From Krischvirus LF73P4, in sequence record OZ035795.1: a stretch of 64,000 nucleotides of DNA. The stretch is one strand, 5' to 3'. The notes beneath the pieces are model-generated. The model searched no databases, had not been told where the DNA came from, and saw only the letters and a program-made list of their open reading frames with translations. The position numbers and the translations under genes were made by a program. Shown here piece after piece: positions 28,704 through 46,486 of the stretch (the stretch's first letter is position 1; the number at the start of each line of letters is the position of its first letter).

Positions 28704-28710
28704 TCAACAT

Positions 28711-28734
28711 AGGCCGCTTTGCGCGGCCTTTCTT
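28711..28734 (+). terminator. rho-independent terminator
   Basis: AGGCCGC-tttgc-GCGGCCT hairpin followed by TTCTT. Confidence 0.5.
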
Positions 28735-28748
28735 AGAGGGAATACATT

Positions 28749-29042: not shown

Positions 29043-29044
29043 TA

Positions 29045-29407: not shown

Positions 29408-29414
29408 GGTGAAG

Positions 29415-30761
29415 ATGAATAAATCAGTTACTTACCGCAGCCTTGAAAGCATTGTACATAATGAAGCTAAGGAATATGCGATCTATTCTGCCGAGGAACG
29501 CGGGATTCCTCAATTAGTAGATGGGCTTAAACCAGTGCAACGCTTTGTTATGGAATGTGCTTTGCAAAAGAGTAAAGGCGACCGTAAGAAATTCCGTAAG
29601 ATGGCAGATATTGGATCTGGTGTTGCTGAGTTGGGTTATCACCACGGGGAAACTAATGCCGTAGAAGCCGGATCACTCATGGCGAATACATGGAGCAATA
29701 ATACTCCACTGCTTGACGGTCAAGGTAACTTCGGATCTCGTTTAGTCCAGAAAGCAGGTGCAGCACGTTATATCTTTGCTCGTGTGCATGAAAACTTCTT
29801 TAAAATCTATAAAGATATGAATTGCGCACCTAAGCACGAAGATCTGGAACACATCCCGCCAGCGTTCTACTTGCCAGTTGTGCCAATGGTATTGGCTAAT
29901 GGTATTAGTGGTATTGCTACAGGGTATAAAACTGACATTTTACCGCATTCACTGGAAAGCCTCATTGAATGCACAGAGCTAGCACTTGCCGGAAAACTGG
30001 ATAAAGAACCTAGTGTTCAATTCCCGAAATTCACGGGTAAAGTTATCCCGCGAGATGATCGCGATGGTGTGATTCTTGAGGGTACATATGAACTAAACGG
30101 CAAGACTAAACTGACAATATCAGAAGTTCCTTATAAGTTCGACCGTGAAGAATATGTAGCGGTACTGGATGCACTGGAAGAAAAAGATCTGATTGTATCG
30201 TATAATGACCGTTGCTCTAAGGACGGATTCAGATTTGAAGTAACACTGAAACGCGATTATTTCAAAAGCGAAGATGAATCCGCTCGACATGAGCAAATCA
30301 TGAAGGATTTTAAACTAACGCAGTTAGTAGCCCAGAATATCGTAGTGGTTAATGAACGTGGTTTAGTAGAAGTATTCGAGAAAGCGAGCGATCTGATCCG
30401 TCGATTCGTCGAAATCCGATTAGGGTATGTTGATAAACGCATTGAATTGATGCAAGCGGAAACGCTGGAAGCATACAATTATGCAATGGCTAAAGCCGAA
30501 TTTATCGATCGCGTAATTAAGGGCGAAATCGAGCTACAGGGCAAGAAAAAGGCCGAGGTAATGCAATCCATCAATGGACATGAAAAACTGCGTCCATACG
30601 CCGATAAGCTAGTTTCTATGCCATTGTATAGCGTTACTCAAGAAGAGTATGATCGACTGGTCAAAGATGCCAATAAACATCATAGTGAATATGAGTATTG
30701 GACAAAGACGACAGCAATGAAGGAATATAAGAAAGATCTTAAAGAACTTAAGAAGGGTTGA
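29415..30761 (+). CDS. 52: DNA topoisomerase II medium subunit gp52 (GyrA-like)
   Basis: 448 aa from ATG 29415; conserved blocks (GLKPVQRF, GYHHGE, LLDGQGNFGSR) as in T4 gp52. Confidence 0.9.
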   Translation: MNKSVTYRSLESIVHNEAKEYAIYSAEERGIPQLVDGLKPVQRFVMECALQKSKGDRKKFRKMADIGSGVAELGYHHGETNAVEAGSLMANTWSNNTPLLDGQGNFGSRLVQKAGAARYIFARVHENFFKIYKDMNCAPKHEDLEHIPPAFYLPVVPMVLANGISGIATGYKTDILPHSLESLIECTELALAGKLDKEPSVQFPKFTGKVIPRDDRDGVILEGTYELNGKTKLTISEVPYKFDREEYVAVLDALEEKDLIVSYNDRCSKDGFRFEVTLKRDYFKSEDESARHEQIMKDFKLTQLVAQNIVVVNERGLVEVFEKASDLIRRFVEIRLGYVDKRIELMQAETLEAYNYAMAKAEFIDRVIKGEIELQGKKKAEVMQSINGHEKLRPYADKLVSMPLYSVTQEEYDRLVKDANKHHSEYEYWTKTTAMKEYKKDLKELKKG

Positions 30762-30967
30762 TTATGAAAGAATATCCAGAAGGCGGTTATATTGCATTTG
30801 TGTACAACAATAAAAAGATTGTGCCAATGGTCGTTGAGACTATGGAAGAAGCCAACCGGATCACTATTGAATCTCTGAATAAGTTAGCAGAGATAACAAA
30901 CACACCAGAACACAGAGCAACGATAGACTATTTGATGAAAGAATTTTTGGAGGGAAAGTATGACTGA
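30758..30967 (+). CDS. hypothetical protein
   Basis: 69-aa ORF. Confidence 0.45.
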   Translation: MIMKEYPEGGYIAFVYNNKKIVPMVVETMEEANRITIESLNKLAEITNTPEHRATIDYLMKEFLEGKYD

Positions 30968-31352
30968 ACGACGCATCACTTCAAATGGTTTGGGTACTCA
31001 TCATGCCTGGATGGTTAATCCAGACAAAAATCCTTATAAACTTTACGATACAACGATTAAACCGTGGAATAATGACGTATGGAAATCATCACCATCAATT
31101 AATCCGATGACTGATCCGAGACCGATTAGCCCAATGGCGGACCCAGTACAGATCAAGCCGTTGCCTTACCAGATAACGACGAATAGCATAGCCAACAAAC
31201 AAGAAAATGATATTGATATGATCTACGAGATGATTAAACTTTGGCGTGATGTTTATCTGGGTGTTCTATGCAACACAGATAAAAGTGCACATGCGGCAGC
31301 GGTGCTGGCATCTCATGCAGTAGACGAAGCCAAAAAGAAATTTAGTAAGTAA
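30960..31352 (+). CDS. hypothetical protein
   Basis: 130-aa ORF. Confidence 0.5.
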   Translation: MTERRITSNGLGTHHAWMVNPDKNPYKLYDTTIKPWNNDVWKSSPSINPMTDPRPISPMADPVQIKPLPYQITTNSIANKQENDIDMIYEMIKLWRDVYLGVLCNTDKSAHAAAVLASHAVDEAKKKFSK

Positions 31353-31361
31353 CTGACTATT

Positions 31362-31388
31362 AAGCCGATCCTTGTGGTCGGCTTTTTT
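31362..31388 (+). terminator. rho-independent terminator
   Basis: AAGCCGATC / GGTCGGCTT hairpin followed by TTTTTT. Confidence 0.55.
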
Positions 31389-31402
31389 ATTTGAAAAGTT
31401 GT

Positions 31403-31431
31403 TTGACTTCCATAATCCAGCATTGCATAAT
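31403..31431 (+). promoter_or_regulatory. sigma70-type promoter TTGACT-17-CATAAT
   Basis: -35 at 31403-31408, -10 at 31426-31431. Confidence 0.45.
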
Positions 31432-31462
31432 ACACACAGTGAAACAAAAAGGAGATTCAAAA

Positions 31463-31669
31463 ATGAAAGTACGTTGCATTGAAACAGATCACATCAATTA
31501 TAGCTTTAGTGTTGGGTGTGATTATGATGTTGATGTATTCACGGACAATAGCGGAAACACATTTGATGTAGTTCATGGTGACTATATTTGGTTTTACTTT
31601 GACAAACAACAACTTACTGCAACCAAACGAAACGGTGATCCGGTAGCAAAATTTGAAATAATCGAATAA
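31463..31669 (+). CDS. hypothetical protein
   Basis: 68 aa; GGAG 8 nt upstream of ATG 31463. Confidence 0.45.
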   Translation: MKVRCIETDHINYSFSVGCDYDVDVFTDNSGNTFDVVHGDYIWFYFDKQQLTATKRNGDPVAKFEIIE

Positions 31670-31675
31670 AGTCTA

Positions 31676-31710
31676 TTGACACCAGAACAAGGGAGTAGTA
31701 ACATACTCCC
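31676..31710 (+). promoter_or_regulatory. repeated promoter + stem-loop cassette, copy 1 (TTGACA-17-TAACAT; GGGAGTA/TACTCCC)
   Basis: -35 at 31676-31681, -10 at 31699-31704, inverted repeat 31691-31710. Confidence 0.5.
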
Positions 31711-31735
31711 ATACCAAACAAAAGGAGAATCAAAG

Positions 31736-32008
31736 ATGAACAACGAAAACAGCAAGGTGTTAGCAATTGCCGATAAAGTAGGTTACTGGAAATGCTGGGA
31801 TGATATGGAGAAATTAGGCGGTCGCTATCTCGATAACTTAGAGTTGCATTATTGCCAAGCGCGTAATGCAGAAGTTGCGGGAGTAGCAATCGAAGATATT
31901 CCGTCTAAAGTCTTCGGATTCTCTAAAGATGATACTCTAGAATATGTTTTCAAGGCTGTTATGGATCAAGCATGGGAAGACGCAGAGACACGCGCTCTTG
32001 ATTGGTGA
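31736..32008 (+). CDS. hypothetical protein
   Basis: 90 aa; AGGAG upstream. Confidence 0.45.
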   Translation: MNNENSKVLAIADKVGYWKCWDDMEKLGGRYLDNLELHYCQARNAEVAGVAIEDIPSKVFGFSKDDTLEYVFKAVMDQAWEDAETRALDW

Positions 32009-32012
32009 TAAT

Positions 32013-32183
32013 ATGAACTGGTATAAAATTTGGAAAAATCAGGTGGAGGCTTATCTAGGGTATAAGCCCACCGACGAAGAATTACTTGAAGCAATGTACG
32101 AAGACGGAATAAATCCGAAAGTAGCCGCGCAAGAATACGCGGAATGGATGAAGGTCGAAGATAACATAAAGGGGAAACTATGA
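32013..32183 (+). CDS. hypothetical protein
   Basis: 56-aa ORF. Confidence 0.35.
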   Translation: MNWYKIWKNQVEAYLGYKPTDEELLEAMYEDGINPKVAAQEYAEWMKVEDNIKGKL

Positions 32184-32380
32184 AGAAAATGATTGCAATT
32201 GCTTTGCTGGCTAGTGCATGTACTGTAAATGCTAATACCGCAGCGATGGTCGCGGCTGTAACTGCCGCAAATGCTTCCGTTATGGCATCGCAAGAGGCAG
32301 CACGCCAGCAAGCACAACAAGAAGCCCAGCGAAAAGCGCATGAGGCGACGAAAAAATTTCACGAAAATAACAAAAATTAG
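32180..32380 (+). CDS. small exported protein (signal peptide; possible lipoprotein)
   Basis: MKKMIAIALLASAC N-terminus; Ala/Gln-rich helical remainder. Confidence 0.45.
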   Translation: MKKMIAIALLASACTVNANTAAMVAAVTAANASVMASQEAARQQAQQEAQRKAHEATKKFHENNKN

Positions 32381-32415
32381 TTGACTCCAAAGGTCATCGG
32401 TAGTATTATACTCCC
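32381..32415 (+). promoter_or_regulatory. repeated promoter + stem-loop cassette, degenerate copy 2 (TTGACT-17-TATTAT)
   Basis: -35 at 32381-32386, -10 at 32404-32409, imperfect repeat ending TACTCCC 32409-32415. Confidence 0.45.
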
Positions 32416-32442
32416 ATACCGAAACGAACTGGAGGAATTAAA

Positions 32443-32685
32443 ATGGTTAAAGTTAATGTTATCGAAGTTGCACTGTATGACGCTGGTATCTTCCTGAATG
32501 AAAAAGAAGCTGCCGTTCTCGATGAACTGAAAACTGTTTTTGTTCCTGTAGTAGAAGACGTAGAAGCAATCAAAATCGCTTCTCGTAAACTGTCCCGCGA
32601 AGCATTCGATATGATTGATCCGGTTTTCAAAGTTATGCACGAATGCGCGGTTATGATGACCGAAGAAGAAGCGAAAAATTTCTAA
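32443..32685 (+). CDS. hypothetical protein
   Basis: 80-aa ORF; GGAGGA upstream. Confidence 0.45.
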   Translation: MVKVNVIEVALYDAGIFLNEKEAAVLDELKTVFVPVVEDVEAIKIASRKLSREAFDMIDPVFKVMHECAVMMTEEEAKNF

Positions 32686-32692
32686 AAACTAG

Positions 32693-32727
32693 TTGACGTA
32701 AAGATAAGGGAGTAGTAACATACTCCC
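32693..32727 (+). promoter_or_regulatory. repeated promoter + stem-loop cassette, copy 3 (TTGACG-17-TAACAT)
   Basis: -35 at 32693-32698, -10 at 32716-32721, inverted repeat 32708-32727. Confidence 0.5.
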
Positions 32728-32750
32728 ATACCAAACGAAAGGAGAATCAC

Positions 32751-32963
32751 ATGAAATCTATCGAGCAAGTAGTAACAGAGTTTATGAGCTACGAAGGAAA
32801 CCGCATCTTTGGACGTTCTCAAGTTCGCGAGATCGTAGAAGAAGTTGCGGGAGAGTTTGCGGAATCTGGTCACGTTATCACGCAAGAACGTAAAGAAGAA
32901 GCAGTAAGCCAGATCATGGCTATGCAGAAAATGCGTATTAATGCACGAGCGGGTAAAAATTAA
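32751..32963 (+). CDS. hypothetical protein
   Basis: 70-aa ORF; GGAG upstream. Confidence 0.45.
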   Translation: MKSIEQVVTEFMSYEGNRIFGRSQVREIVEEVAGEFAESGHVITQERKEEAVSQIMAMQKMRINARAGKN

Positions 32964-32973
32964 AAAATAGTTG

Positions 32974-33008
32974 TTGACACAGGATTAAGGGAGTAGTAAG
33001 ATACTCCC
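32974..33008 (+). promoter_or_regulatory. repeated promoter + stem-loop cassette, copy 4 (TTGACA-17-TAAGAT)
   Basis: -35 at 32974-32979, -10 at 32997-33002, inverted repeat 32989-33008. Confidence 0.5.
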
Positions 33009-33036
33009 ATCAAGACAAAACATTGAGGAATATATT

Positions 33037-33795
33037 ATGAAAAACATTATCGCTGCTATCGTTCTTTCCGCTACTGCTTTCGGTGCTAATGCTGCGTCCT
33101 TTGATTGCGCTAAAGCTACTACCAAATCAGAGAAGTTTATTTGTGCTAATGAGTCTATCTCCGCACTGGACTCTAAACTTCATGAAGTGTATGTTAAGGC
33201 TGTTAAGATTGATCCGTCTCTGAAACAAGAGCAACGAAACTGGAATAAAACTGTTCGTGATACAATGATCAATATCGGGCAGATTCAGCCACTGGAGGCT
33301 GTATACAACGCTCAAATCCAAAACTTGATGAATGTATTACCTAAAGAAGAAACCGCGTCAGAAAGCGATTCAGAGACTTCTGCGAAGGTTGAAGAAGAAC
33401 AACCGAAACAGGAAGCAAAAGTGGTAGAAGAACCGAAGGTCGAAACTTTTACCTATCAATGCACCGTTCGTTATGAGTGGAGTATGAAAGATGGAATTTC
33501 CACAAAAATTAAAGAAGCGCCACTGTATGCCAAATATGGAAATCAACCAGGAGATCTTAAAGTAACCATTAAAAATGGGAAGATGGTTGATTTTGTATAC
33601 ATTGATGAATACAACGTACACAAAGCAAACGTACAAGAAACCGTTATGACTAAAGGCGGGTTTTATAAGAATGTTGGCAAGAAAGATCTATATGAATACT
33701 CCGTTTTCGAACCAAACGACGGAACTATTCGATTCGAAAAACGTCATCCTACATTCGGTGGCGCAATTGATGTAGATCAATACGTTTGCAAGTAA
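33037..33795 (+). CDS. exported protein with DUF1311/LprI-like N-terminal domain
   Basis: Signal peptide ending ANA; FDCAKATT..EKFIC..ESISALDSKL..Y motif; acidic/lysine linker. Confidence 0.55.
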   Translation: MKNIIAAIVLSATAFGANAASFDCAKATTKSEKFICANESISALDSKLHEVYVKAVKIDPSLKQEQRNWNKTVRDTMINIGQIQPLEAVYNAQIQNLMNVLPKEETASESDSETSAKVEEEQPKQEAKVVEEPKVETFTYQCTVRYEWSMKDGISTKIKEAPLYAKYGNQPGDLKVTIKNGKMVDFVYIDEYNVHKANVQETVMTKGGFYKNVGKKDLYEYSVFEPNDGTIRFEKRHPTFGGAIDVDQYVCK

Positions 33796-33806
33796 GAGGT
33801 TAAATT

Positions 33807-34094
33807 ATGAAATTCAATAACATGAAGATCACAAAAGATTGGTGGGATGCGATGCGAGATACTCCAGAAACCAAATTGAATGAGACCACAACAACAATAC
33901 AAGTTGATTACGAAGATCCGAAAGACATATACAGAGAGATTTTAATCAGAGATCTTATAAAAGCTGGAAACTATCAAACACCAGATGGCCTTATTGACAT
34001 GATGGTTAAAGGTCTGTATAGTGGTAAAAATACAGATATTTTACCGTGGTACGAGGGATATTTTAAAACATATCGTGACCACAACCGAAAATAA
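33807..34094 (+). CDS. hypothetical protein
   Basis: 95-aa ORF. Confidence 0.45.
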   Translation: MKFNNMKITKDWWDAMRDTPETKLNETTTTIQVDYEDPKDIYREILIRDLIKAGNYQTPDGLIDMMVKGLYSGKNTDILPWYEGYFKTYRDHNRK

Positions 34095-34117
34095 TTTGTT
34101 GACGTGAGGATTATATT

Positions 34118-34309
34118 ATGGTAATTTTTAATCGTGATGGTATTATAGTTCGACAGCATCCATTCCTTGAATACTATCAGGTTGAACAATGGGGATATGG
34201 AGATTGCAACCGCTCATACGGTCAAAGCTGGGGATACCGTACAGTTTTTGAATCAACTAATATTGACAAAGTACGACAGAAAGTTTTAGAACTTCTTAAC
34301 GATAAGTGA
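34118..34309 (+). CDS. hypothetical protein
   Basis: 63-aa ORF; GAGGA upstream. Confidence 0.4.
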   Translation: MVIFNRDGIIVRQHPFLEYYQVEQWGYGDCNRSYGQSWGYRTVFESTNIDKVRQKVLELLNDK

Positions 34310-34319
34310 GGATTACATC

Positions 34320-34688
34320 ATGGAAATTCAAAACAATTACGAAAAATGTGTTATTATCAATGATTTGCAACGTCAATTGCATCATTACGAAACCGATTAT
34401 AAAACAGCAACCAAAACCGGAAAGTTGAAAGTGTGGGAAGTATGGTATAACCGAAACTATCTGGGAAGTATCCACAAACTTGATCGCAGTGATGTTTATA
34501 CAATGCATGTAGGCGCTTGTGGTGAATCGGATGTAGCATCTAATTTCATGGAAGCACTTGCATTCTATGTAGAATATCTGGTAGACTATATCGAGTTGGA
34601 AGAGGAAGTGGTAGAATTGCTTCCTCCACCGGAAGAAGCGCCGGAAGCAACGATCCTGAAAGCATTAAAGAAAATCTTTGTTAAGTGA
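34320..34688 (+). CDS. hypothetical protein
   Basis: 122-aa ORF. Confidence 0.45.
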   Translation: MEIQNNYEKCVIINDLQRQLHHYETDYKTATKTGKLKVWEVWYNRNYLGSIHKLDRSDVYTMHVGACGESDVASNFMEALAFYVEYLVDYIELEEEVVELLPPPEEAPEATILKALKKIFVK

Positions 34689-34696
34689 GGTGAACT

Positions 34697-35029
34697 ATGA
34701 AAAATGTACTGATTGTGTGGGAACTGATTCCAGAAACTACTGAATTATACATGGTACAGGTTGATAATAAAGAATTTGAAATTCTGAAACGCGTCAACTG
34801 CAAATATATTAACATTGATGACATGACCCCAGAAATGGACTATGTAAACTATGCTCTCATGCAGCCTAGTTGGATTATGGATGAAACCAAAGCAGACGCC
34901 GAATCGCTGGGTGTACCGGAAGAAGTATTAGCGAAATGGCATCAATTCAAAGTTGAAATAAAAGAGGGCGAACCGTTTATTCCTAGCGGTATGATCGATG
35001 CGGTGATCGTAACAGGTTTTCATCTGTAA
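34697..35029 (+). CDS. hypothetical protein
   Basis: 110-aa ORF. Confidence 0.45.
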   Translation: MKNVLIVWELIPETTELYMVQVDNKEFEILKRVNCKYINIDDMTPEMDYVNYALMQPSWIMDETKADAESLGVPEEVLAKWHQFKVEIKEGEPFIPSGMIDAVIVTGFHL

Positions 35030-35041
35030 GGAGATTATACA

Positions 35042-35374
35042 ATGTTTAACTATGACAAATATGAATCATGGAAAGCGACCGAATTGAAAGAGGCAGCGCG
35101 GTTAATCACACCGCGTCTTTATCCGGTGTTGTTTAGCGCCGATAAAGTAACAAGGGAAGTAAACGAGGCGCTATCGGTTTTAGGCTATCTGATCGATAAA
35201 GTAGAGAAAACATCGGTATTCACAAATAGCGTAGAATATACCCGGTATCGAGTGTTTTTAGATTCCTTGCTCGTTGTCATTAAAGCACTAAATGATCATA
35301 ACTACACCATGAACATGACGAAAATAATCGACGAAGCAAGAATTATGACAGAGAATATTTTCGGTAAATTTTGA
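35042..35374 (+). CDS. hypothetical protein (paralog of 35489-35812)
   Basis: 110 aa; C-terminus ...DEARIMTENIFGKF matches neighbour's ...NDARKLAENVYGKF. Confidence 0.5.
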   Translation: MFNYDKYESWKATELKEAARLITPRLYPVLFSADKVTREVNEALSVLGYLIDKVEKTSVFTNSVEYTRYRVFLDSLLVVIKALNDHNYTMNMTKIIDEARIMTENIFGKF

Positions 35375-35488
35375 TTATGAAAGATGATGAATCATTGAAA
35401 ATTGCACTGGTTATGCTATTACAAGGTATAGAATTAGCAAACCACGAAAAAATGTTGACACAACAGCGTGAAATTATGAGAGGTGATT

Positions 35489-35812
35489 ATGATCGAGTTT
35501 GAAATTGACAACTTTCACGAAAAAGCAGAAGACTTAACCAAAATTTTGATTAGTCGAGGTGCATATAATACGAAAGATATTATAAAAGAAGTTAATGTAG
35601 CGATGGACGCGATCCAAAAGGAATTTAAACATATTTCAGCGATTGGAGAAAATGGTCATCTTGAAGATGTTGAGCTGGTAGCACTGCGACGCTATTACTT
35701 CTTTGTTGATTGCATCATTGATCTAGCTAAAAATTATAGTCATTACATGAAAGATATTGTAAACGATGCACGTAAGTTGGCAGAGAATGTTTACGGGAAG
35801 TTTCCAGAATGA
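35489..35812 (+). CDS. hypothetical protein (paralog of 35042-35374)
   Basis: 107 aa; GAGG upstream of ATG 35489. Confidence 0.5.
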   Translation: MIEFEIDNFHEKAEDLTKILISRGAYNTKDIIKEVNVAMDAIQKEFKHISAIGENGHLEDVELVALRRYYFFVDCIIDLAKNYSHYMKDIVNDARKLAENVYGKFPE

Positions 35813-36057
35813 AATTAGAACAAGCGATTGTATACTTTGAGATGGGCTATGATATTGCTCGTGTAGAGTGGGAAGATGGTGATTTTGTCCGATTGATTGA
35901 TCTTCCAGAAACAGCTATTGCACTGGTCAAAGTAGAAAACGGCATACAACGAAATTACGCGTTTTCTGACGAAGACAAACAAGCCGATGACTGGTACGCT
36001 ACATGTTTTCATCATACAGCGTCAAAATGCGATTCAGGCGCGTCTATGCGTCAATAA
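35809..36057 (+). CDS. hypothetical protein
   Basis: 82-aa ORF. Confidence 0.45.
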   Translation: MKLEQAIVYFEMGYDIARVEWEDGDFVRLIDLPETAIALVKVENGIQRNYAFSDEDKQADDWYATCFHHTASKCDSGASMRQ

Positions 36058-36069
36058 ATGCGTCAATAA
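36046..36069 (+). repeat. perfect 12-bp tandem duplication ATGCGTCAATAA x2
   Basis: Read directly; duplicates last three codons plus stop of ORF 35809-36057. Confidence 0.8.
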
Positions 36070-36103
36070 AAAAGAAGGGGAGGCCGAAAGGCTTCCCCTT
36101 TAA
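36068..36103. terminator. bidirectional terminator between convergent early block and holin t
   Basis: AAGGGGAGGCC-gaaa-GGCTTCCCCTT hairpin flanked by A-run (5') and T-rich (3'). Confidence 0.6.
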
Positions 36104-36104
36104 G

Positions 36105-36761
36105 TTATCTAATCCTTCCGAGGATTCTGGCAGATTGATTGCAAAGAGTATCTAAATTCTCAATGTCAATATCCGGTTTATTCTTCCATGCAATGGAGAT
36201 ACTACCAGAATAGACATTATCGAGATTGAATATAGGGCAAGAATACATAAACCCTATATCGATACTCTCTAATTTCTTTTCTCTTGATGGAATATACTGG
36301 AAATCTTTATCGGTAAAATATGATTTACCTAAAAGATGCCTACGATATTCTTCACTCGTTTTATTGATAGGGAATCCGCCTAAATTTTTTTCATCGATTG
36401 TATGCGGTAACTTTCCTTCATATGCCACCAAATCAACAAAATAGTTTAGGTTTTTCGGACGAAAACTAAAAACAGCAGAAAAATCGGCATCAGCCGACAC
36501 ATGAACTATCTGTAACTGCTCCTGTGCTGCATTATCAAAATTGCGGTCTTTCTCTACCTGGAGAACGTGAGCATAAGTCTCATAACGAGTCTCTTTATAA
36601 AGCGCAAATAACTCGTTTTTACTATAAACGACAAATGCTAATATAGACAACACGACGGCAGCAAAAACACGAAGTACGAGCAACTCCGTGCTTTTAGTTG
36701 TGAAAATAGCGCGCAGGACATTTGAGATAGCAAAGTCTTTCCCTTTTTCAGAAACTTGCAT
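36105..36761 (-). CDS. t: holin T (lysis protein t)
   Basis: 218 aa, same length and strong similarity to T4 holin as recalled (LQIVHVSADADFSAVFSFRPKNLNYFVD...). Confidence 0.9.
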   Translation of the reverse strand: MQVSEKGKDFAISNVLRAIFTTKSTELLVLRVFAAVVLSILAFVVYSKNELFALYKETRYETYAHVLQVEKDRNFDNAAQEQLQIVHVSADADFSAVFSFRPKNLNYFVDLVAYEGKLPHTIDEKNLGGFPINKTSEEYRRHLLGKSYFTDKDFQYIPSREKKLESIDIGFMYSCPIFNLDNVYSGSISIAWKNKPDIDIENLDTLCNQSARILGRIR

Positions 36762-36794
36762 ATAATGCCCTAAGATAACTATGACAGTGTACTC

Positions 36795-37034
36795 TTATTT
36801 AGGTAGTTGACTATCACTATTTTTATTTTGCTCGTTGCTATCTTCTGACTGATCTTTATTAAACTCCTTATAAAGTTCTTCCACAAAACGATCATCAATT
36901 GGCGTATTGGTATAAGCCGCAAGACGACGAGCGCAATAGAAGAAAATTTTAGTGAGCATCTTTTCACTAATTAACTTTGACAATAGTTTCATTCCGAAAT
37001 TAGACAAAGCACCAATGACGATATTATAGACCAT
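36795..37034 (-). CDS. hypothetical protein between adhesin and holin
   Basis: 79 aa; AAGGAG 8 nt upstream of ATG; hydrophobic N-terminus, acidic tail. Confidence 0.5.
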   Translation of the reverse strand: MVYNIVIGALSNFGMKLLSKLISEKMLTKIFFYCARRLAAYTNTPIDDRFVEELYKEFNKDQSEDSNEQNKNSDSQLPK

Positions 37035-37097
37035 AGCCGTTTCTCCTTAGTAGTTCCCTTCCGTGGGAGTTTTCCTTAATTCTTTTTATAATTGCGT

Positions 37098-37880
37098 CTA
37101 AACAGCCGGTCCGTAAATAGCTCCGCGATTTTGCCACGTTGGAGAAGACCCTATAACAGCATATCCAGAATCGCCGCCATTATATTCAGATCCTTGACCA
37201 CGAATATTACATCTACCTCCTGCGGCGCCTACCTCACCACCGCTTCCACCATTATAGATACCGTTCACGGACCCCGAACCGGGCGCATAAAGAGTACCAG
37301 CAGTTGCGCCTGATTGCATATCAATAGATCCGCCCGGCGCACCAAACGGACGCCCACCGCCACCGCCAAAGGTTAATCTCATTTGTGAAAAAGGAGAATA
37401 ATACCCGCCACCGCCACCGCCACCGCCACCTGCAATAGCTCCACCATTATTAATTCTTAGTCTCCCACCAATATCATTTTGAATACAATGCCCCCCGGCT
37501 GATCCAGGACCATTGCTACCGCCATTCCCGCCACGACCATACATCGTTACGCCATGTATATTCAACTGAACATATTCATTCGGTGTATCTCCGTACATAA
37601 AGAATAAAGGAACATCTTTAGAATATGATACTAAATCTCCAGTGATATTAAACACTATAGGTGTACTACCTGCTTCAAAGCATCTATCACGGAACCACTG
37701 ACCGTTGAAGTTATGGTCTGCACCAAGTGTATGAATAATTTCTCGCGAGCGACCTGCAAATTGACTCATCCAGCAAGGAACACCCAATCTTAATTGACCA
37801 GCCGCTTGACTCATCCATCGTTGTCCTGTTTCATTTGCGGCTGAACTTCCAATCCAACCAGGAACACCAACTACTGCCAT
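37098..37880 (-). CDS. 38: long tail fibre tip adhesin gp38 (T2-type, glycine-rich motifs)
   Basis: 260 aa; conserved N-terminal domain then poly-Gly runs separated by variable segments. Confidence 0.9.
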
Positions 37881-37893
37881 AATTTATACTCCA

Positions 37894-37912
37894 AAGGGGG
37901 CAACGCCCCCTT
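37894..37912 (-). other. tight stem-loop AAGGGGGC-aac-GCCCCCTT between gene 37 and gene 38
   Basis: Perfect 8-bp inverted repeat with 3-nt loop. Confidence 0.4.
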
Positions 37913-37916
37913 GTTG

Positions 37917-40697
37917 TTAGAATTTAAAATATTTACTAATTTTGCGAGCAATTTTAGTAAAGAAAGGAGTTTTCAATTCTTTAATTTCTTCACTCATTTC
38001 CTGAATAGCCTTAATTAAAAGAGCATTCACTGCCGAGTTAGAAATTGTCAGAACATCAGATCCATCAACTTCAACTTTAGATACAGCTTCCGGCAATTCT
38101 TTTTCAAGATCCTGAGCAATAATACCAGCTTCACGTTTAATCACACTACGATCTTTAATAGACTTAACTTTATCGTAAGTATAAACTTTCAGACGGCATA
38201 CTTTTTCAAGTGCTCCGTTTTCTAACTCTTCTTTATTAATCTTAAGACGGGAGTCAGAACGAATATACACATCGCTAAAGCTACCATTTCCTGGTGTATA
38301 AAAGAACCCATCATGATGGAATTCAAACACAGCTTGTGGGTGTCCAGCATCAGGAGAAGCCTCCGTGGATCCGACACGAATGATTGCTTGCCCCCACTGT
38401 GATGGAATACGACGCATACCAAAGTCAACAGCGGTGCTATATCCTTGATTGGTTATAACGCTTCTTGCTTTAAGAATAGGATAATAACTATCTTGACCAA
38501 CATAACCATGATCAACGAATAATGGAGCTTCTACTCGCCATTGGTTGCCCCAATCACCTGGTTGTCTGGCAACCCAACTTGCACCATTGATATACATACG
38601 ATCGCGGTTAACGTTAACCATTAAGGTATTTTGCGGGTTTAAAGATATCTCGCCAGAATTTGTAATATAAATTGCAGAATTACTAGCATAACTAAAAAAC
38701 CCTAATCCGTTATCAGCGCCTCCTTTCCCTATATACCAATTATTATTACCATCACAACTACCCAACAAATAAACCGAATCTCCAGATGACGGAGCATTCA
38801 AAACTATTGCGTCCGAACCACGATTAACAGTTATTTTATCGGAAGATTCTATTTGACCAAAGAATTTAGTTTTAATTGCACCAGTCGCTAAAGTACGTTC
38901 AGTGGAAAAATGAGCGCCTTTGCTATCTTCTAACTGAATAATGTTATCACGAGCGTTATTGCTATCACCCCAATGGTTAAATTTAAAATAATCTCGTGAT
39001 CCTAAACGTCCGGCGTCAAAAGTCATCAAGCCTTTCATGTTAATATCACCACCAAAAAATGCGGTGAGAGAATCACGTTTTAATTTTAAAACGTTAGCAC
39101 CACTAGTACCACCCAAAGTAACATCACCAGTTCTTAATTCATAACGGAAAGGTCTATTTGTATTAAAGTTTCCATCTTGATCATTTTCGTCGGTGGAAAG
39201 AATATAAAGACTCTCTCCATCATTACGTAAAAATGCACCAAATTTTCCGCCATACATACGGAATGCATTCAACGAGCGGAATTTAACTTCTGTTTTAAAT
39301 GTGGTAGTGTTATTAAGGTTAACAGTAGAGTTAAAGTTAACTGCGCCATTAAAATCTTGTTTAGCAGTCCAAGTATGTGATCCGTCTTCAAGAACAACAC
39401 GGCGAACTGTACAAGTTCTATTTCCCGGATTACCAGCAACACGAACGACAAAATAACGGTAGTTTGTCTGGGATACAGTACCACGCCAAACCTGAACAGT
39501 ACGCCCTGTGCCAGTGTGTTCGCTAGGACCGACAGAAAACATAACCAAGTTTCCGTCAATCGCACCCCAATCCATATTTGCTGGCATGTTCTTTATTTTG
39601 TTCAAAGGAACACTAAACATACTACCAGGGACAAAATCAAAGGTTTGCCAGTCTAGCTCCGCTAATTGAGATTTAACACCACCCATACCCAGAGTGATCG
39701 GCATAGAATAGGACGTATATACTTCGTACCAATTTCCCCAGATGTTATTTGTCATCGCACGTTCAAACACGCGAGATCGCGTAGTTGCACCCGTTCCTGC
39801 GGTAGTGAAACGTTGGAAAATAGCGGCACCGGAAGCACGCTGTTTAACCTCAAGCAATCCGGTCATCTCAACCGGAACACCTTCTGCAACTGGACGGTTA
39901 ATAACGGCATCAGTCCCTAAAATGTTATACAAGCCAGGAGAACGAAAATTATTAAGATCCCCGTCATAGAATGTGTTTGGAGTAACCATACCTACTTGTT
40001 GCCACGGTCCCCAATTCGGAGCTTCTGGATCCCATGCACCAGCAAGACAACGAACATATACAACACCCATTCGGGTAGTATAACGTTGCGTGCGAGAATA
40101 GTTACCACCTTCATAAATTTCTAAAAGACCTTGCGCGAGACCACCTTCTTCTGGGTAATTTCGAGAAAATGATGCAATGGAACTTAAACTATTTCGCCAT
40201 AACCCAAAATGAGAAGCATCACCTAAAGTATTCAAGTCTAGTGTAGTTGATAGTGGACGTGTGCCAGTTTGAATATTGCGCCACGGACCCCATGGACCAT
40301 CTACGCCATTCCATTTAGCAGACAAAGAACGGATATAAACGTTACCAGACCGAACAGTATAACGCTGAGTGCCAGCAAATTGACCAGCCACAAATACTTC
40401 TAATACACCTACAGCATTCTCTTCTGGGAATTTATTTGCTGGCTGCGCATTTGTTGAAGTTGATTTAGACCAAACGCCAGTAAATTTACCAGTAGGTCCA
40501 TAATTATCTAAATTTGCATCAGATGGCAACTCACCGCGAAAGTGTCCCAAAGTAATTACATTATTGCTGTCATCTTTTGTATATAGTTCTCGATCCGCTA
40601 GGTTAATAGCAAGTTCACCCGGAGTTAGAATATTCGCATCCGGCTTGCGACCTGCCGTACTTGTTCTTTTAAATTGGATTCTCTGTAAATCTGCCAT
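37917..40697 (-). CDS. 37: long tail fibre distal subunit gp37, with C-terminal intramolecular-chaperone-like segment
   Basis: 926 aa; N-terminus QRIQFKRTSTAG...GELAINL like T4 gp37; SDSRLK motif about 113 aa from C-terminus. Confidence 0.9.
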   Translation of the reverse strand: MADLQRIQFKRTSTAGRKPDANILTPGELAINLADRELYTKDDSNNVITLGHFRGELPSDANLDNYGPTGKFTGVWSKSTSTNAQPANKFPEENAVGVLEVFVAGQFAGTQRYTVRSGNVYIRSLSAKWNGVDGPWGPWRNIQTGTRPLSTTLDLNTLGDASHFGLWRNSLSSIASFSRNYPEEGGLAQGLLEIYEGGNYSRTQRYTTRMGVVYVRCLAGAWDPEAPNWGPWQQVGMVTPNTFYDGDLNNFRSPGLYNILGTDAVINRPVAEGVPVEMTGLLEVKQRASGAAIFQRFTTAGTGATTRSRVFERAMTNNIWGNWYEVYTSYSMPITLGMGGVKSQLAELDWQTFDFVPGSMFSVPLNKIKNMPANMDWGAIDGNLVMFSVGPSEHTGTGRTVQVWRGTVSQTNYRYFVVRVAGNPGNRTCTVRRVVLEDGSHTWTAKQDFNGAVNFNSTVNLNNTTTFKTEVKFRSLNAFRMYGGKFGAFLRNDGESLYILSTDENDQDGNFNTNRPFRYELRTGDVTLGGTSGANVLKLKRDSLTAFFGGDINMKGLMTFDAGRLGSRDYFKFNHWGDSNNARDNIIQLEDSKGAHFSTERTLATGAIKTKFFGQIESSDKITVNRGSDAIVLNAPSSGDSVYLLGSCDGNNNWYIGKGGADNGLGFFSYASNSAIYITNSGEISLNPQNTLMVNVNRDRMYINGASWVARQPGDWGNQWRVEAPLFVDHGYVGQDSYYPILKARSVITNQGYSTAVDFGMRRIPSQWGQAIIRVGSTEASPDAGHPQAVFEFHHDGFFYTPGNGSFSDVYIRSDSRLKINKEELENGALEKVCRLKVYTYDKVKSIKDRSVIKREAGIIAQDLEKELPEAVSKVEVDGSDVLTISNSAVNALLIKAIQEMSEEIKELKTPFFTKIARKISKYFKF

Positions 40698-40741
40698 TTT
40701 ATAAAATCCTTAACGGTTGTTAGAATAATATTATTTAGAAA

Positions 40742-40760
40742 AGCGGGGATTATCCCCGCT
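40742..40760 (-). terminator. stem-loop AGCGGGGA-tta-TCCCCGCT, partial terminator/attenuator between gp36-like gene and gene 37
   Basis: 8-bp perfect inverted repeat; short U-run follows on - strand. Confidence 0.4.
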
Positions 40761-40764
40761 AGAA

Positions 40765-42255
40765 TTAGAAAGTACCAAAATCAATTACCGCATTAAGCGG
40801 AACAGCGCCAACATCATCAGGAGTTGGTTTGTGTCCTTCGTGGTATAATTCAAATGTATCGGTGTCCTGAGTATTGTTGCGTGATTTAACGAAAATAATT
40901 TTAGAATCATGTGTGATGCCTAGTTTCTCGTGCGCTTTAATATCACTAACACGATGAATCATTGCTGTGCCATCTAAGCTATTAAGTCCAGCGTAGCAAT
41001 TATCACCATTATAGTTAGCTTTTGCGGTACGAACGCCGTTTGCAGCGGGAACTGTCAAAGCACCTCTCATGGTATCGCCAGTCACATTAACATAGCGAGC
41101 ATCAGCCAATTTACGGTGATCTACATAGTTCCATGCGGTCCATGATTCATTAGAACAAGAACGCCAGCACATCGGATGATCAATAGATTCAGGATAGTAT
41201 ACCTGAACAATTCGACGAGTACCGACCGCATCTTCTGGGCGATATACCATCAAAACGCCGTTATAATAGCTATCAGACGGTTTATTAGTACCTGATCCAG
41301 CATTTTCCACACGATAGATACCGCGATTAATAAGAGTGTTCCAATCAACGTTTCCAATGATTGTTGGATTTGCTACCATTGATTTTTTCTCAAAGTAGCT
41401 CAAACGAACCAATTCATTAGGACCAGCAGGATCGTTTGTCGCCAACATTCTAGGCGCTTGCAAGTTACCTTCCATAATATCACCAGCACGTTTAACCTGT
41501 GCATCATTGGTGACATTACCTAGTCCAACATCGGCTTTAGTCGGTTTATTGTTGGTGTGGTAGAATCTACCTGCCTTGCCATTAACAGAAATTGTCGGCT
41601 CGTTTTTGCTACTGAATGCCAAAGTATCAAGACTATTTCCAAAATAAATGGCATTAGAATCGAAAGCAATGAAACCACGATCCCGCGCAAGTATTTTCGA
41701 ATTAACATCAAGTTTAAATGTAGCCGTGTTTAAATTATACGTTCCCGTGAGAGTATCACCGCGACGAGACACCAAATCCAAATCATTGTTTGTCGGCTTA
41801 TTAACAGGACTATAGACGCGTTGACCAGTGTCTTTAATGGTTGTCCCTTCGATGGTCCCTTTAGTTTTAAAATCACCTGTGGTAGTGTCAATATAAGCCA
41901 TGATAACATCATCACGAGCATTAACAAAACCAATAGATTTCCACGAATGCAAACCCCAACTTACACCATCAAAGTTAGCCGCATCGCTCTTTCCTTTAAA
42001 GATCCCGTTCTTTTTGGTTTCTCCACCGGATGCGCTACCTACGCTTAAACCTTCCTCAAAATGGACCAGTTTCTGAAATGTACCACCCTCAGATGCACTA
42101 ACAGCATCAAAATCGGCAGCCGAAGGTTTATCAAAAGCGGTATAGATTTTATGACCTTTATAGAAAAGCTGATCACCCGCTGGCTGGATCGTCAAGTTTC
42201 CTTGCGTCCAAATGGGAGATCCGCCTACAGTAGATCCATGTTTCAAATCTGCCAT
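40765..42255 (-). CDS. 36: long tail fibre hinge/connector protein, gp36-like (enlarged)
   Basis: 496 aa; N-terminus MADLKHGSTVGGSPIWTQGN...PAGD resembles T4 gp36; directly upstream of gene 37. Confidence 0.6.
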   Translation of the reverse strand: MADLKHGSTVGGSPIWTQGNLTIQPAGDQLFYKGHKIYTAFDKPSAADFDAVSASEGGTFQKLVHFEEGLSVGSASGGETKKNGIFKGKSDAANFDGVSWGLHSWKSIGFVNARDDVIMAYIDTTTGDFKTKGTIEGTTIKDTGQRVYSPVNKPTNNDLDLVSRRGDTLTGTYNLNTATFKLDVNSKILARDRGFIAFDSNAIYFGNSLDTLAFSSKNEPTISVNGKAGRFYHTNNKPTKADVGLGNVTNDAQVKRAGDIMEGNLQAPRMLATNDPAGPNELVRLSYFEKKSMVANPTIIGNVDWNTLINRGIYRVENAGSGTNKPSDSYYNGVLMVYRPEDAVGTRRIVQVYYPESIDHPMCWRSCSNESWTAWNYVDHRKLADARYVNVTGDTMRGALTVPAANGVRTAKANYNGDNCYAGLNSLDGTAMIHRVSDIKAHEKLGITHDSKIIFVKSRNNTQDTDTFELYHEGHKPTPDDVGAVPLNAVIDFGTF

Positions 42256-42288
42256 AAAGTAACCTCAAAAATTAGTTATAGTTCCGAG

Positions 42289-42296
42289 TATTTATA
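42289..42296 (-). promoter_or_regulatory. T4-type late promoter box TATAAATA
   Basis: Exact TATAAATA on - strand, 33 nt upstream of gp36-like ATG. Confidence 0.55.
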
Positions 42297-42465
42297 GAAT
42301 GTTAACAAAATATCGCTTCGCGACGTGCCGTAGGCACTGACTACTTTTTAACCGAAACAAATTTTCTATTATTCTAAAGATCTTTCTTCGTTTTGGTTAT
42401 GTTTTAACCAATAACTATATTTTTATACAGTAATAAATAAAACGGGTACTATACGAGGACTTCTT

Positions 42466-42720
42466 ATGACAGAAGACATTTTGTTAAAACTCTATGATCG
42501 TCTGGATAACGAATTAGCAACATTGCGGGGTGAAGTTCTCTATTTGTCTAAATGCAATACAGATCTGCTTAAGCAGATTGCAGAAAGGGATGATCAAATA
42601 AAATCCCTTTCAGGTGCATTACGTGATCGCGACAAGGCATTAGAGATTTTACAGCGTGTTACCAATAAGGAAGAATTAAAAGACTTCTTACATGGTTATG
42701 CTCATGCCATCGATCTATAA
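42466..42720 (+). CDS. hypothetical coiled-coil protein
   Basis: 84 aa; GAGGA 6 nt upstream of ATG. Confidence 0.45.
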   Translation: MTEDILLKLYDRLDNELATLRGEVLYLSKCNTDLLKQIAERDDQIKSLSGALRDRDKALEILQRVTNKEELKDFLHGYAHAIDL

Positions 42721-42746
42721 TAAAAAAGCCCGTCAATGACGGGCTT
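42721..42746 (-). terminator. rho-independent terminator ending the gene 4 - gene 2 transcript
   Basis: AAGCCCGTC-aat-GACGGGCTT hairpin; on - strand followed by TTTTTTA. Confidence 0.6.
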
Positions 42747-42750
42747 AATG

Positions 42751-43572
42751 TTATGCATCCTTCCAAACTTTCCTTGCGTCGTATTTCTTGCCTTTTGACA
42801 TAAACTGATATGTAGGCATATAGATAATATTGCTCCAGTCTTTCGGGCTAATCTCAACAAGTTTTGTTTTAATGTGTCCCGGTAGATATGCTTTGATCAT
42901 GTGATCACTTCCACGCATACCTTTTACATCGCTCCATTTGATTTTTAAGCGTGTTTTATTGCTCAAGGTAGGAGTAGATGCATATTGCTTTAAAAGTGCC
43001 TCTAAAAACTGCTGACGGGCTTTAGGCGTTACATAGTGTAAGTTAAGACCCAGCATTACAGTATTACCCGCCTTTGTCTTAGAATCACCCAGACAAATGA
43101 TCAGCGGGAAAACATCCCAATATGGTAAAGTGTCTTTATACTTCGCATCATACATAAAGGTATAGATTCGCCCTACTTGCGGTTTTACAATCTGGTGTCC
43201 CTTTATTCCCGCTTTTATTGTTTTAGTAAACCACTCCTGTGATTTTTCTTTAGGACGACTCTTTGATACAGCACGCATAGACGCACGAAAATCATTAATC
43301 ATCATCATTGCGCGTTGCTGCTTATTGAGACCCTTTGCACCTTTCCCTTTTAGTTTTTCAACTTCTATTGCTGTTTTAATTTCGCTGGCATAACGAGACA
43401 TACTTTTAGTGAAAGTCGCATAGGCTATTCCCTTAGAATCTGCAAATGCTTTAGCTGTCATGCCTTTGGCTTTTGCTTTCGCAAATTCTACACCCAATTC
43501 GACCCACTGTTTAGACTTTCTTTTTTGGGGAGACGGCTTTTCGTCTTCTGTGATTATTTCAAATACGCTCAT
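42751..43572 (-). CDS. 2: DNA end protector protein gp2
   Basis: 273 aa, basic; size and position next to gene 4 as in T4. Confidence 0.65.
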   Translation of the reverse strand: MSVFEIITEDEKPSPQKRKSKQWVELGVEFAKAKAKGMTAKAFADSKGIAYATFTKSMSRYASEIKTAIEVEKLKGKGAKGLNKQQRAMMMINDFRASMRAVSKSRPKEKSQEWFTKTIKAGIKGHQIVKPQVGRIYTFMYDAKYKDTLPYWDVFPLIICLGDSKTKAGNTVMLGLNLHYVTPKARQQFLEALLKQYASTPTLSNKTRLKIKWSDVKGMRGSDHMIKAYLPGHIKTKLVEISPKDWSNIIYMPTYQFMSKGKKYDARKVWKDA

Positions 43573-43583
43573 AATATTATCCT

Positions 43584-44057
43584 CTATTTGTTAAGCCCTT
43601 TAAAGCCAAACACTTTCTTTAATGCATGTTCGGTGATGATCTTAAACTCCATGTTATGCTTTTGGCATAATTTCACGGCAGCTAACCATTTTTCAGTATT
43701 TTTTGTGTATGTCCATACTTCATGCATATATCGTTGCTTTGTCTTCGCGGTCATTCTTTTTGGCTTTTCCGGTGGCCTTGTCTCTTTAGCTGGTTTAACT
43801 TCCCATAAATGCTCCTTGCCATCATCAAACTTAACGTAAAAATCCATAAAGTATCTGTGTCTTTTTCCGTCTGTTGATGACTCATAAGGAATTACTACGG
43901 TCTCAGATCCCCATTTTGCAACTCTAGGATTGCGGTCTAGCCACTGCATGATCCATCTTTCCCAGCTTGAACGGTATGTGATCTTACGTATATCCCCTTT
44001 ATACTTTTCCTTATTCTCAGGAACATACTTGCCCTTATAAGTGTTAGATCCTCCCAT
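43584..44057 (-). CDS. 4: head completion protein gp4
   Basis: 157 aa; divergent from gene 53 as in T4. Confidence 0.65.
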   Translation of the reverse strand: MGGSNTYKGKYVPENKEKYKGDIRKITYRSSWERWIMQWLDRNPRVAKWGSETVVIPYESSTDGKRHRYFMDFYVKFDDGKEHLWEVKPAKETRPPEKPKRMTAKTKQRYMHEVWTYTKNTEKWLAAVKLCQKHNMEFKIITEHALKKVFGFKGLNK

Positions 44058-44072
44058 TTTAGCACCCTTTAT

Positions 44073-44080
44073 TATAAATA
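44073..44080 (+). promoter_or_regulatory. T4-type late promoter box TATAAATA for gene 53 operon
   Basis: Exact TATAAATA, 32 nt upstream of ATG 44113. Confidence 0.6.
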
Positions 44081-44088
44081 CATAATAC

Positions 44089-44096
44089 TATTTATC
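44089..44096 (-). promoter_or_regulatory. possible late promoter variant GATAAATA for gene 4
   Basis: 7/8 match on - strand, 31 nt upstream of gp4 ATG. Confidence 0.3.
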
Positions 44097-44112
44097 AATT
44101 GAGGGTGCTAAA

Positions 44113-44667
44113 ATGCTCTTTTCTTTCTTCCCTGCCATTGAATACAATGGCAAGATGATTACTGACATTGTGCGCAATTACCGCGCATATTTCAACGCAA
44201 TAATTTCTGATTATAACATACAAACATATTACATTCAAGGTAGTCCACGACCGGAACAAGTTGCATATGAAGTATACGGAAACCAGCAACTTTATTGGAT
44301 CTTGCTGATGCTTAATGACGTATACGATCCGTTTCATGACTGGATCACTGATCAAGAGACAGCATATGAATCAGCCGAACAGCGATATGCAAATGTAGGA
44401 GGAAATCAAGTATTATACCACGTTGATATTGACGGAAACAAGTATTGGAATCTTACCGAATATCCGAAAGGATCAAGCAATTGGTATGATAAAGGGGATA
44501 TTCATCACCGTTATTTGCAGTTTCAGGGTGCATTATCGGCAGTAGACACACTGGAAGATGCGATCCTCCGTAATGAGGAACGACGCAAGATCAAGATCAT
44601 AGATCCTACACAAATTAAACAATTTATTAACGCATTCATTCGAGAAATGGAAAAGGCTGATGTGTAA
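44113..44667 (+). CDS. 53: baseplate wedge protein gp53
   Basis: 184 aa; first gene of late operon, upstream of gp5. Confidence 0.7.
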   Translation: MLFSFFPAIEYNGKMITDIVRNYRAYFNAIISDYNIQTYYIQGSPRPEQVAYEVYGNQQLYWILLMLNDVYDPFHDWITDQETAYESAEQRYANVGGNQVLYHVDIDGNKYWNLTEYPKGSSNWYDKGDIHHRYLQFQGALSAVDTLEDAILRNEERRKIKIIDPTQIKQFINAFIREMEKADV

Positions 44668-44678
44668 GGTGATTAATT

Positions 44679-46478: not shown

Positions 46479-46486
46479 GGTAACTA

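Follow-up and report, generated by a model that had tools for sequence, protein, structure and literature searches.

The gp38 adhesins have a modular architecture of glycine-rich motifs (GRMs) and hypervariable segments (HVSs), with a universally conserved C-terminal motif (Trojet et al. 2011, PMC3157838), and nearly all of those that recognise Tsx have the same four HVSs (Trojet et al., PMC3157838). The same study reported that T6 fails to adsorb when its g38 carries an amber mutation, that no viable recombinants were recovered with the tested deletions of HVS1-3 or GRM2-4, and that the adhesin of phage PST, which also uses OmpA and recognises Yersinia, differs from that of T6 by three residues, Q167R, M168I and G208I (PMC3157838). 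Lutz et al. 2025 (PMC12032242) found that receptor use is predicted by Gp38 phylogeny across Tequatrovirus, Mosigvirus and Krischvirus and that phages FL04, FL15, FL23 and FL44 use Tsx; in their spot assays on MG1655 deletion mutants, that is, in terms of phage plating, FL04 and FL15 depended on tsx, and FL04 lost its plating on the tsx mutant while keeping it on the ompA, ompF, ompC and fadL mutants (PMC12032242). For KarlGJung (Bas37) and Paracelsus (Bas36), the BASEL supplementary table gives Tsx as the primary receptor and the LPS deep core as the terminal receptor (PMC8594841); KarlGJung is not mentioned in the main text of that paper.

The locus described here lies in a 64,000-nucleotide stretch of DNA from Krischvirus LF73P4 (OZ035795.1; hereafter the window), in which the gene order is gp36, gp37 (with an S74 domain), gp38, a 79-aa ORF and holin t. 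Its main features are:

37098..37880, minus strand: gene 38, encoding the 260-aa long-tail-fibre tip adhesin, with its stop codon at 37098-37100 (from the ORF, Pfam, PHROG 2056 and identity to FL04)
37881..37916, minus strand: gp37-gp38 intergenic region of 36 nt, with a GC hairpin, AAGGGGGCGUUGCCCCCUU, followed by a Shine-Dalgarno sequence, GGAG, located 8 nt ahead of the ATG
37917..40697, minus strand: gene 37, encoding the 926-aa distal long-tail-fibre subunit bearing gp38 at its tip (PHROG 1699 'long tail fiber distal subunit', E=1.7e-184; Pfam Gp34_trimer and Peptidase_S74)
38082..38258, minus strand: Peptidase_S74 intramolecular chaperone domain of gp37, aa 814-872 (PF13884, E=1.3e-11)
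37108..40535, minus strand: T6-like (Tequatrovirus-type) cassette of distal gp37 and gp38 (over 3.4 kb, 84.5-84.6% identical in nucleotides to T6 and KarlGJung)

Positions 37098-37880 correspond to exactly one minus-strand ORF of 260 codons plus a stop; the initial annotation had named no strand. Its product (Gp38) matched PF05268 (GP38) over aa 47-259 (E=4.4e-71, 239.6 bits) and PF21721 (Gp38_N) over aa 1-42 (E=6.3e-20, 71.3 bits), in both cases above the curated Pfam cut-off of 25 bits, and PHROG 2056 ('tail fiber protein; host specificity') over its full length (E=6.6e-111). A sequence search of the PDB returned only two entries, both of them gp38 adhesins: 9V85 (7e-77), the sfGFP-fused receptor-binding domain of PP01 gp38, and chain D of 6F45 (3e-47), the gp38 of S16. 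Glycine accounts for 63 of the 260 residues, and for 48 of the 131 in aa 114-244; both glycine strings quoted in the initial annotation are present, the first, made up of nine glycines and then YYSP, at aa 151-163 and the second at aa 172-184. By its sequence, gene 38 is a real gene of the known GP38 adhesin family, and its glycine runs are no chance feature. No second gp38-like gene was found in the window, since a tblastn search with ten gp38 proteins gave 37101-37880 as the sole match.

The direct neighbour of gene 38 on its upstream side is gp37, which carries an intramolecular chaperone domain in its C-terminal part and can be aligned at its C-terminus with the S16 gp37 fragment from the crystal structure with gp38 (6F45_A); on its downstream side gene 38 is followed by the 79-aa ORF, a homologue of RB49p252/Dc5 (PHROG 402). 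The intergenic hairpin folds at -17.2 kcal/mol (z=-2.1), and because this is only modestly better than shuffles we claim no function for it. A promoter and terminator consensus scan of 36000-41000 gave counts below the shuffled expectation and nothing usable.

A tblastn search of 50,697 phage records placed Gp38 among its relatives. All 260 residues of the protein are the same as in the Escherichia phage FL04 adhesin (PP358550.1, WWP71647.1), and the gene is 99.6% identical at the nucleotide level to those of FL04 and of vB-Eco-KMB43 (KMB43); the differences from FL04, three in 783 nt, are all synonymous, and the KMB43 protein carries one substitution, S39I. Amino acid identity was 98% to FL15, 95.8% to KarlGJung and 89% to T6; it was 77% to PP01, over the N-terminal 144 aa only, and ~45-50% to T2, S16 and RB49, over the N-terminal part only. 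Like the window, FL04 has a Krischvirus backbone and the order gp36, gp37, gp38, 79-aa ORF and holin, but its gp37 is 932 aa long instead of 926 and only ~70-75% identical in nucleotides over 40320-39721.

The variable segments were delimited, along the lines that the initial annotation had suggested, by alignment of Gp38 with the gp38 of FL04, KMB43, FL15, KarlGJung, T6, PP01, T2, S16 and RB49, in which four HVSs were resolved. Column entropy was computed over a second set of 115 full-length homologues from the protein database, and invariant columns were taken from a 73-sequence alignment. Across the 115 homologues the protein consists of five GRMs in fixed order, the four HVSs between them and a conserved C-terminal tail, which follow an N-terminal domain and body. 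From the N-terminus, the segments are:

37755..37880, minus strand: N-terminal gp37-attachment domain, aa 1-42 (PF21721; 42/42 residues as in KarlGJung, 40/42 as in T6, 27/42 as in T2)
37542..37754, minus strand: conserved body before the glycine-rich domain (beta-helix part), aa 43-113 (mean entropy 0.79 bits; pLDDT >90 from ~aa 50; aligns with the 9V85 receptor-binding domain)
37518..37541, minus strand: GRM1, YGRGGNGG, aa 114-121 (0.41 bits; G115, R116, G117, G118 and G120 invariant in the 73 sequences)
37431..37517, minus strand: HVS1, aa 122-150 (28/29 identical to T6, 15/29 to T2)
37404..37430, minus strand: GRM2, nine consecutive glycines, aa 151-159 (0.43 bits; G152-G156 invariant)
37368..37403, minus strand: HVS2, aa 160-171 (2.23 bits, the highest of all segments; 12/12 residues as in FL04, FL15 and KarlGJung, 11/12 as in T6, 0/12 as in PP01, T2 and S16)
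37329..37367, minus strand: GRM3, aa 172-184 (0.46 bits; G172-G176, P178, G180 and G183 invariant)
37251..37328, minus strand: HVS3, aa 185-210 (1.56 bits; 26/26 residues as in FL04, 24/26 as in KarlGJung, 21/26 as in T6, 8/26 as in T2)
37215..37250, minus strand: GRM4, aa 211-222 (0.96 bits; G218 invariant; G212, G214, G215 and G221 >=90% conserved)
37179..37214, minus strand: HVS4, aa 223-234 (2.04 bits; 12/12 residues as in FL04, FL15 and KarlGJung, 11/12 as in T6, 1/12 as in T2)
37149..37178, minus strand: GRM5, aa 235-244 (0.78 bits; G236, G239, A241, V242 and G244 >=90% conserved)
37101..37148, minus strand: conserved C-terminal tail, aa 245-260 (P247, W249, G253, I255, Y256 and G257 >=90% conserved)

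Mean column entropy was 0.41-0.96 bits in the five GRMs versus 2.23 bits in HVS2, 2.04 in HVS4, 1.56 in HVS3 and 1.46 in the core of HVS1, and the invariant columns are mostly GRM glycines; the claim that short variable stretches separate the glycine runs is confirmed quantitatively by this contrast. HVS1 is truly variable only in that core, aa 122-131 (nt 37488-37517), its other 19 residues being conserved (0.58 bits). The N-terminal gp37-attachment domain, which had also been proposed, is borne out by the PF21721 match at aa 1-42, and within it W9, G11, S13, G19, M23, A26 and M38 are invariant in the 73 sequences.

The HVSs of Gp38 are 100% identical to those of FL04 in all four segments, and HVS1 to HVS4 match those of T6 at 28/29, 11/12, 21/26 and 11/12 positions, respectively. 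T6 Gp38 (MH550421, AXN58309.1), the classical Tsx adhesin, has the same HVS set and an identical GRM order; it comes from a Tequatrovirus, has one extra Gly before GRM1, differs in GRM4, in GRM5, where it has A-A in place of D237 and S238, and in the C-terminus, and departs from the window in HVS3 at five positions, D187N, A194G and L197-Y198-A199 (I-S-S in T6). KarlGJung and Paracelsus have a Tequatrovirus backbone, unlike the Krischvirus backbone of the window; the KarlGJung adhesin agrees with Gp38 in HVS1 (28/29), HVS2 (12/12) and HVS4 (12/12), but differs at L197-Y198 of HVS3 (I-S in KarlGJung) and at residues of GRM4, GRM5 and the C-terminus. The adhesins of the S16 tip complex (6F45) and the PP01 receptor-binding domain (9V85) are of the same family with conserved GRMs, but S16 and PP01 are OmpC binders whose HVSs are unrelated to those of the window (HVS2 0/12, HVS4 1-3/12). 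T2 Gp38 (AP018813, BBF63406.1; FadL/OmpF) likewise belongs to the same modular class with conserved GRMs, but is just 49.6% identical over the N-terminal 114-115 aa. The g38 product of RB49 (RB49p079), the type phage of the window's genus, is a 258-aa GRM/HVS adhesin that shares 8/12 residues in HVS4 and 14/26 in HVS3, with ~50% identity to Gp38 overall.

Judged from these segments, the Gp38 allele is of the T6/Tsx specificity subtype, and the T2-proper (FadL/OmpF) subtype was rejected, with identities to T2 of 0/12 in HVS2, 1/12 in HVS4 and 8/26 in HVS3. The label 'T2-type' used in the initial annotation holds as a class name, denoting an adhesin and not a T4-type chaperone, but does not fit the specificity segments, which are T6-type (HVS2 11/12 with T6 versus 0/12 with T2; HVS4 11/12 versus 1/12).

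Because Gp38 is 100% identical to the FL04 adhesin and FL04 depends on Tsx, the receptor is effectively known, and it is highly likely that this phage uses Tsx as FL04 does. It had been regarded as an open question, a view that the identity to the adhesin of a Tsx-dependent phage does not support; that the variable segments are identical to those of a characterised adhesin with a known receptor removes the novelty of the allele, not its identification. A different or additional protein receptor, be it OmpA as in the PST, M1, K3 and Ox2 types or FadL/OmpF as in T2, with a phage that is not Tsx-dependent, appears very unlikely. It is suggested by the comparison of PST with T6, in which a change of a few residues in HVS2/HVS3 can be enough for a T6-like adhesin to recognise OmpA and Yersinia as well, by the 5 of 26 HVS3 positions at which the window differs from T6, and by the ~92% nucleotide-identical genes in many Yersinia and Shigella phages. 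Against it, FL04, with an identical Gp38, loses plating on tsx but not on ompA, ompF, ompC or fadL mutants, and there is no change at all relative to FL04; the PST-like substitutions that would extend recognition to OmpA and Yersinia are absent, the window retaining the T6 residues at all three positions (Q166, M167 and G207 in the numbering of the window), and HVS2 and HVS4, of 12 residues each, agree with T2 at only 0-1 positions and with PP01 and S16 at 0-3.

The initial annotation took the HVSs to be the likely host-range determinants. They do determine the receptor, but they set only part of the host range, since O-antigen, capsules and defence systems also limit host range in the wider sense. 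As the gp37 of the window differs from that of FL04, gp37 or LPS may contribute to host range as well.

The AlphaFold2 model of Gp38, built on the homologue alignment, had a mean pLDDT of 86.7 and a pTM of 0.79. Low confidence was confined to the N-terminal ~40 residues, with pLDDT <50 at aa 1-20 of the isolated chain, which is expected, as this segment packs on the gp37 trimer in the S16 complex. A Foldseek search of the PDB gave three significant matches (E<1e-3), the two chains of 9V85 and S16 gp38: the model matched PP01 gp38 (9V85) with E=3.7e-27, TMt 0.89 and an rmsd of 2.3 A, and S16 gp38 (6F45_D) with E=2.8e-21 and TMt 0.77. No other fold was matched, every remaining Foldseek hit in the PDB having E>2. 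The predicted fold of Gp38 is that of the solved gp38 adhesins, a beta-helix body with a polyglycine-rich sandwich.

Several database records label homologues of Gp38 as 'distal long tail fiber assembly catalyst', and PHROG 1121 matches aa 1-87, as would suit a T4-type gp38, a non-structural assembly chaperone of gp37 that is absent from the virion and leaves receptor recognition to the gp37 tip. We consider this function extremely unlikely for Gp38 and rejected it because the GRM/HVS domain is complete, PHROG 1121 covering the N-terminal 87 residues only, and because the fold matches that of the adhesins, with the model superposing on the solved structures; moreover, gp37 already contains an intramolecular chaperone in the form of its Peptidase_S74 domain, and the same is true of the S16 gp37-gp38 tip complex (6F45).

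In the reading that we favour, the phage is an RB49-like Krischvirus in whose long tail fibres the trimeric gp37 tip is very probably capped by Gp38, a monomeric adhesin that binds Tsx. The N-terminal ~42 residues of Gp38 would dock on the gp37 tip. Peptidase_S74 domains are self-cleaving in related fibres, and self-cleavage at the S74 domain of gp37 would take place either ahead of Gp38 attachment or in the course of it. The five GRMs are predicted to pack into a polyglycine-II sandwich core from which the four HVSs would be exposed as distal loops, contacting the extracellular loops of Tsx, the beta-barrel nucleoside channel of E. coli. Reversible binding of Gp38 to Tsx would be the first step of adsorption, after which the baseplate would be triggered and the short tail fibres would bind irreversibly to the LPS core.

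The surrounding DNA has a different affiliation from the fibre tip. Over 28000-42411 the window is 97.3% identical in nucleotides to KMB43, the closest genome, 94.8% to FL04 and ~95% to RB49 where aligned, and by these identities its backbone is that of an RB49-like Krischvirus. Homology to RB49 is 97.7% over 33000-37088, ending just beyond the gp38 stop codon; it is absent across the cassette, the body of RB49 gp37 giving only two short, weak matches to the gp37 of the window at the DNA level, and returns, at 86%, only in gp36 and the initial ~40 codons of gp37, which lie upstream of 40570. RB49 has no gp38 beside gp37, its g38 (RB49p079) lying among early genes at 45.4-46.1 kb, and the same displacement is found in FL37 and FL38 (Lutz et al., PMC12032242). 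Like FL04, FL15 and KMB43, the window, as sequence comparison has it, carries a T6-type cassette of distal gp37 and gp38 in a Krischvirus.

That gene 38 should be a decaying or non-functional copy, with the functional adhesin encoded elsewhere as in RB49, where g38 is far from gp37 and its equivalent region falls outside the window by coordinate mapping, is scarcely credible, given that the ORF is intact and preceded by a Shine-Dalgarno sequence, that all three nucleotide differences from FL04 are synonymous, and that FL04, with the identical protein and one gp38-like place in its genome, is viable and Tsx-dependent.

The Tsx-binding adhesin that we propose is joined to a gp37 gene of composite ancestry. 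When nucleotide identities of the fibre region were binned against six comparators, the window was 96-98% identical to T6 over 39360-39001, but 71-95% identical to KMB43, the nearest Krischvirus, and over 38880-38641 its identity to each of the six was 58-70%. T-even fibre genes are well known to be mosaic, and the gp37 patchwork is not new in itself. The pattern agrees with the remark in the initial annotation on natural host-range switching, and the gp37 mosaic may reflect an exchange of fibre-tip DNA that has recurred between Tequatrovirus and Krischvirus and still goes on.

A separate observation concerns the far side of the fibre locus, where a 110-bp repeat (42302-42411) connects gp36 to a baseplate block. 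Beyond 42411 the window is no longer homologous to any Krischvirus fibre locus, gp34 and gp35 are absent from it, and from 42302 on it matches the RB49p130-gp2-gp4-gp53-gp5 baseplate block in opposite orientation. The 110-bp overlap is an inverted repeat that RB49 and KMB43 each have in two copies (93.6% identity for RB49, 94.5% for KMB43), one between gp35 and gp36 and the other between gp3 and p130, and the switch in the window falls inside a ~64-bp stretch that is identical in both KMB43 copies. None of the 50,697 phage records spans the junction, an exact-pattern scan of IMG/VR for the gp36/p130 junction gave 0 matches, and ten long metagenomic contigs with an identical p130 homologue all have the standard gp3 neighbour, none of them containing the junction. 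Two Logan contigs with an identical gp38 both break off within the repeat; one of these matches window 32707-42361 at 100% identity. Because the Logan contigs break in the repeat and the ten contigs show the gp3 neighbour, the junction is unsupported elsewhere. We consider an assembly misjoin at the repeat more likely than an inversion. A real inversion of ~87 kb, by recombination between the two inverted copies of the 110-bp repeat, is improbable; if it were true, the long-tail-fibre operon would be split, with gp36-gp37-gp38 beside baseplate genes and gp34-gp35 far away.

To summarize, the initial annotation was right in both observation and interpretation, but the adhesin allele of this phage is already known: its sequence, its division into GRMs and HVSs and, by experiment in FL04 and close relatives, its link to Tsx have all been established before. 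The practical value of the finding lies in annotation, in that the phage is predicted with high confidence to need Tsx. Loss of tsx is therefore predicted to be the main route to resistance, and in a cocktail the phage would be redundant with other Tsx-dependent T-even phages. The locus also illustrates the known principle that whole fibre-tip cassettes of distal gp37 and gp38 move between genera of the Straboviridae, and therefore the genus-level backbone is not predictive of the receptor, whereas Gp38 phylogeny is.

By sequence comparison, the distal part of gp37, the subunit of the distal long tail fibre, together with gp38, the adhesin at its tip, constitutes a T6-like cassette of Tequatrovirus type set within a Krischvirus backbone. 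The region 37108-40535, covering distal gp37 and gp38, was 84.5% identical in nucleotide sequence to T6 and KarlGJung, and homology to the Krischvirus type phage RB49 ended at 40570 and restarted at 37088, directly past the gp38 stop codon. In RB49 itself, by contrast, g38 is found at 45.4-46.1 kb, ~100 kb distant. Within gp37, identity varied on a fine scale:

38641-39480: fine-scale mosaic of gp37 (amino acids ~406-686).

Across 39360-39001 the window was 96-98% identical to T6 and only 71-95% identical to KMB43, the closest genome. Segment 38880-38641 matched all six comparators at merely 58-70%, and therefore originated from a source outside this set.

The spacer separating the two fibre genes contains a potential structure:

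37881-37916, minus strand: GC-rich hairpin AAGGGGGCGUUGCCCCCUU, between the gp37 stop codon and the gp38 Shine-Dalgarno sequence.

The hairpin folds at -17.2 kcal/mol (z=-2.1), and a TATAAATT motif directly adjoins the gp38 ATG.

Upstream of gp36, the window contains a junction located at a 110-bp repeat:

42302-42411: junction (110-bp repeat) joining gp36 to the baseplate block.
40765-42255, minus strand: gp36, left flank of the junction.
42466-52330: right flank, comprising the RB49p130 homologue (p130), gp2, gp4, gp53, gp5 and more baseplate genes.

In RB49 and KMB43 this 110-bp sequence forms an inverted repeat, with copies at gp35/gp36 and gp3/p130; here it links gp36 straight to the baseplate block, in opposed orientations. 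Since the repeat joins the two in this manner, and since gp34 and gp35 were not found within the window, the arrangement implies either an inversion of ~87 kb or a misassembly. The junction had no match among 50,697 phage records, in a pattern scan of IMG/VR contigs, or in ten long metagenomic contigs carrying a p130 homologue. Two Logan contigs encoding an identical gp38 end inside the repeat, one of them being 100% identical to the window over 32707-42361.

Two small open reading frames (ORFs) lie near holin t:

36795-37034, minus strand: 79-aa ORF, between gp38 and holin t.
35809-36057, plus strand: 82-aa ORF, just past holin t and on the strand opposite to it.

The former, a homologue of RB49p252/Dc5 matching PHROG 402 (unknown function), is part of the Krischvirus backbone, outside the T6-like cassette; its identical neighbours carry a precomputed Pfam match to PF26925 (Phage_PM2_Gpl). 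Homologues of the latter, in FL04 and Logan contigs, have a weak precomputed match to PF11195 (Tad2-like), and this ORF possibly encodes an anti-defence protein.
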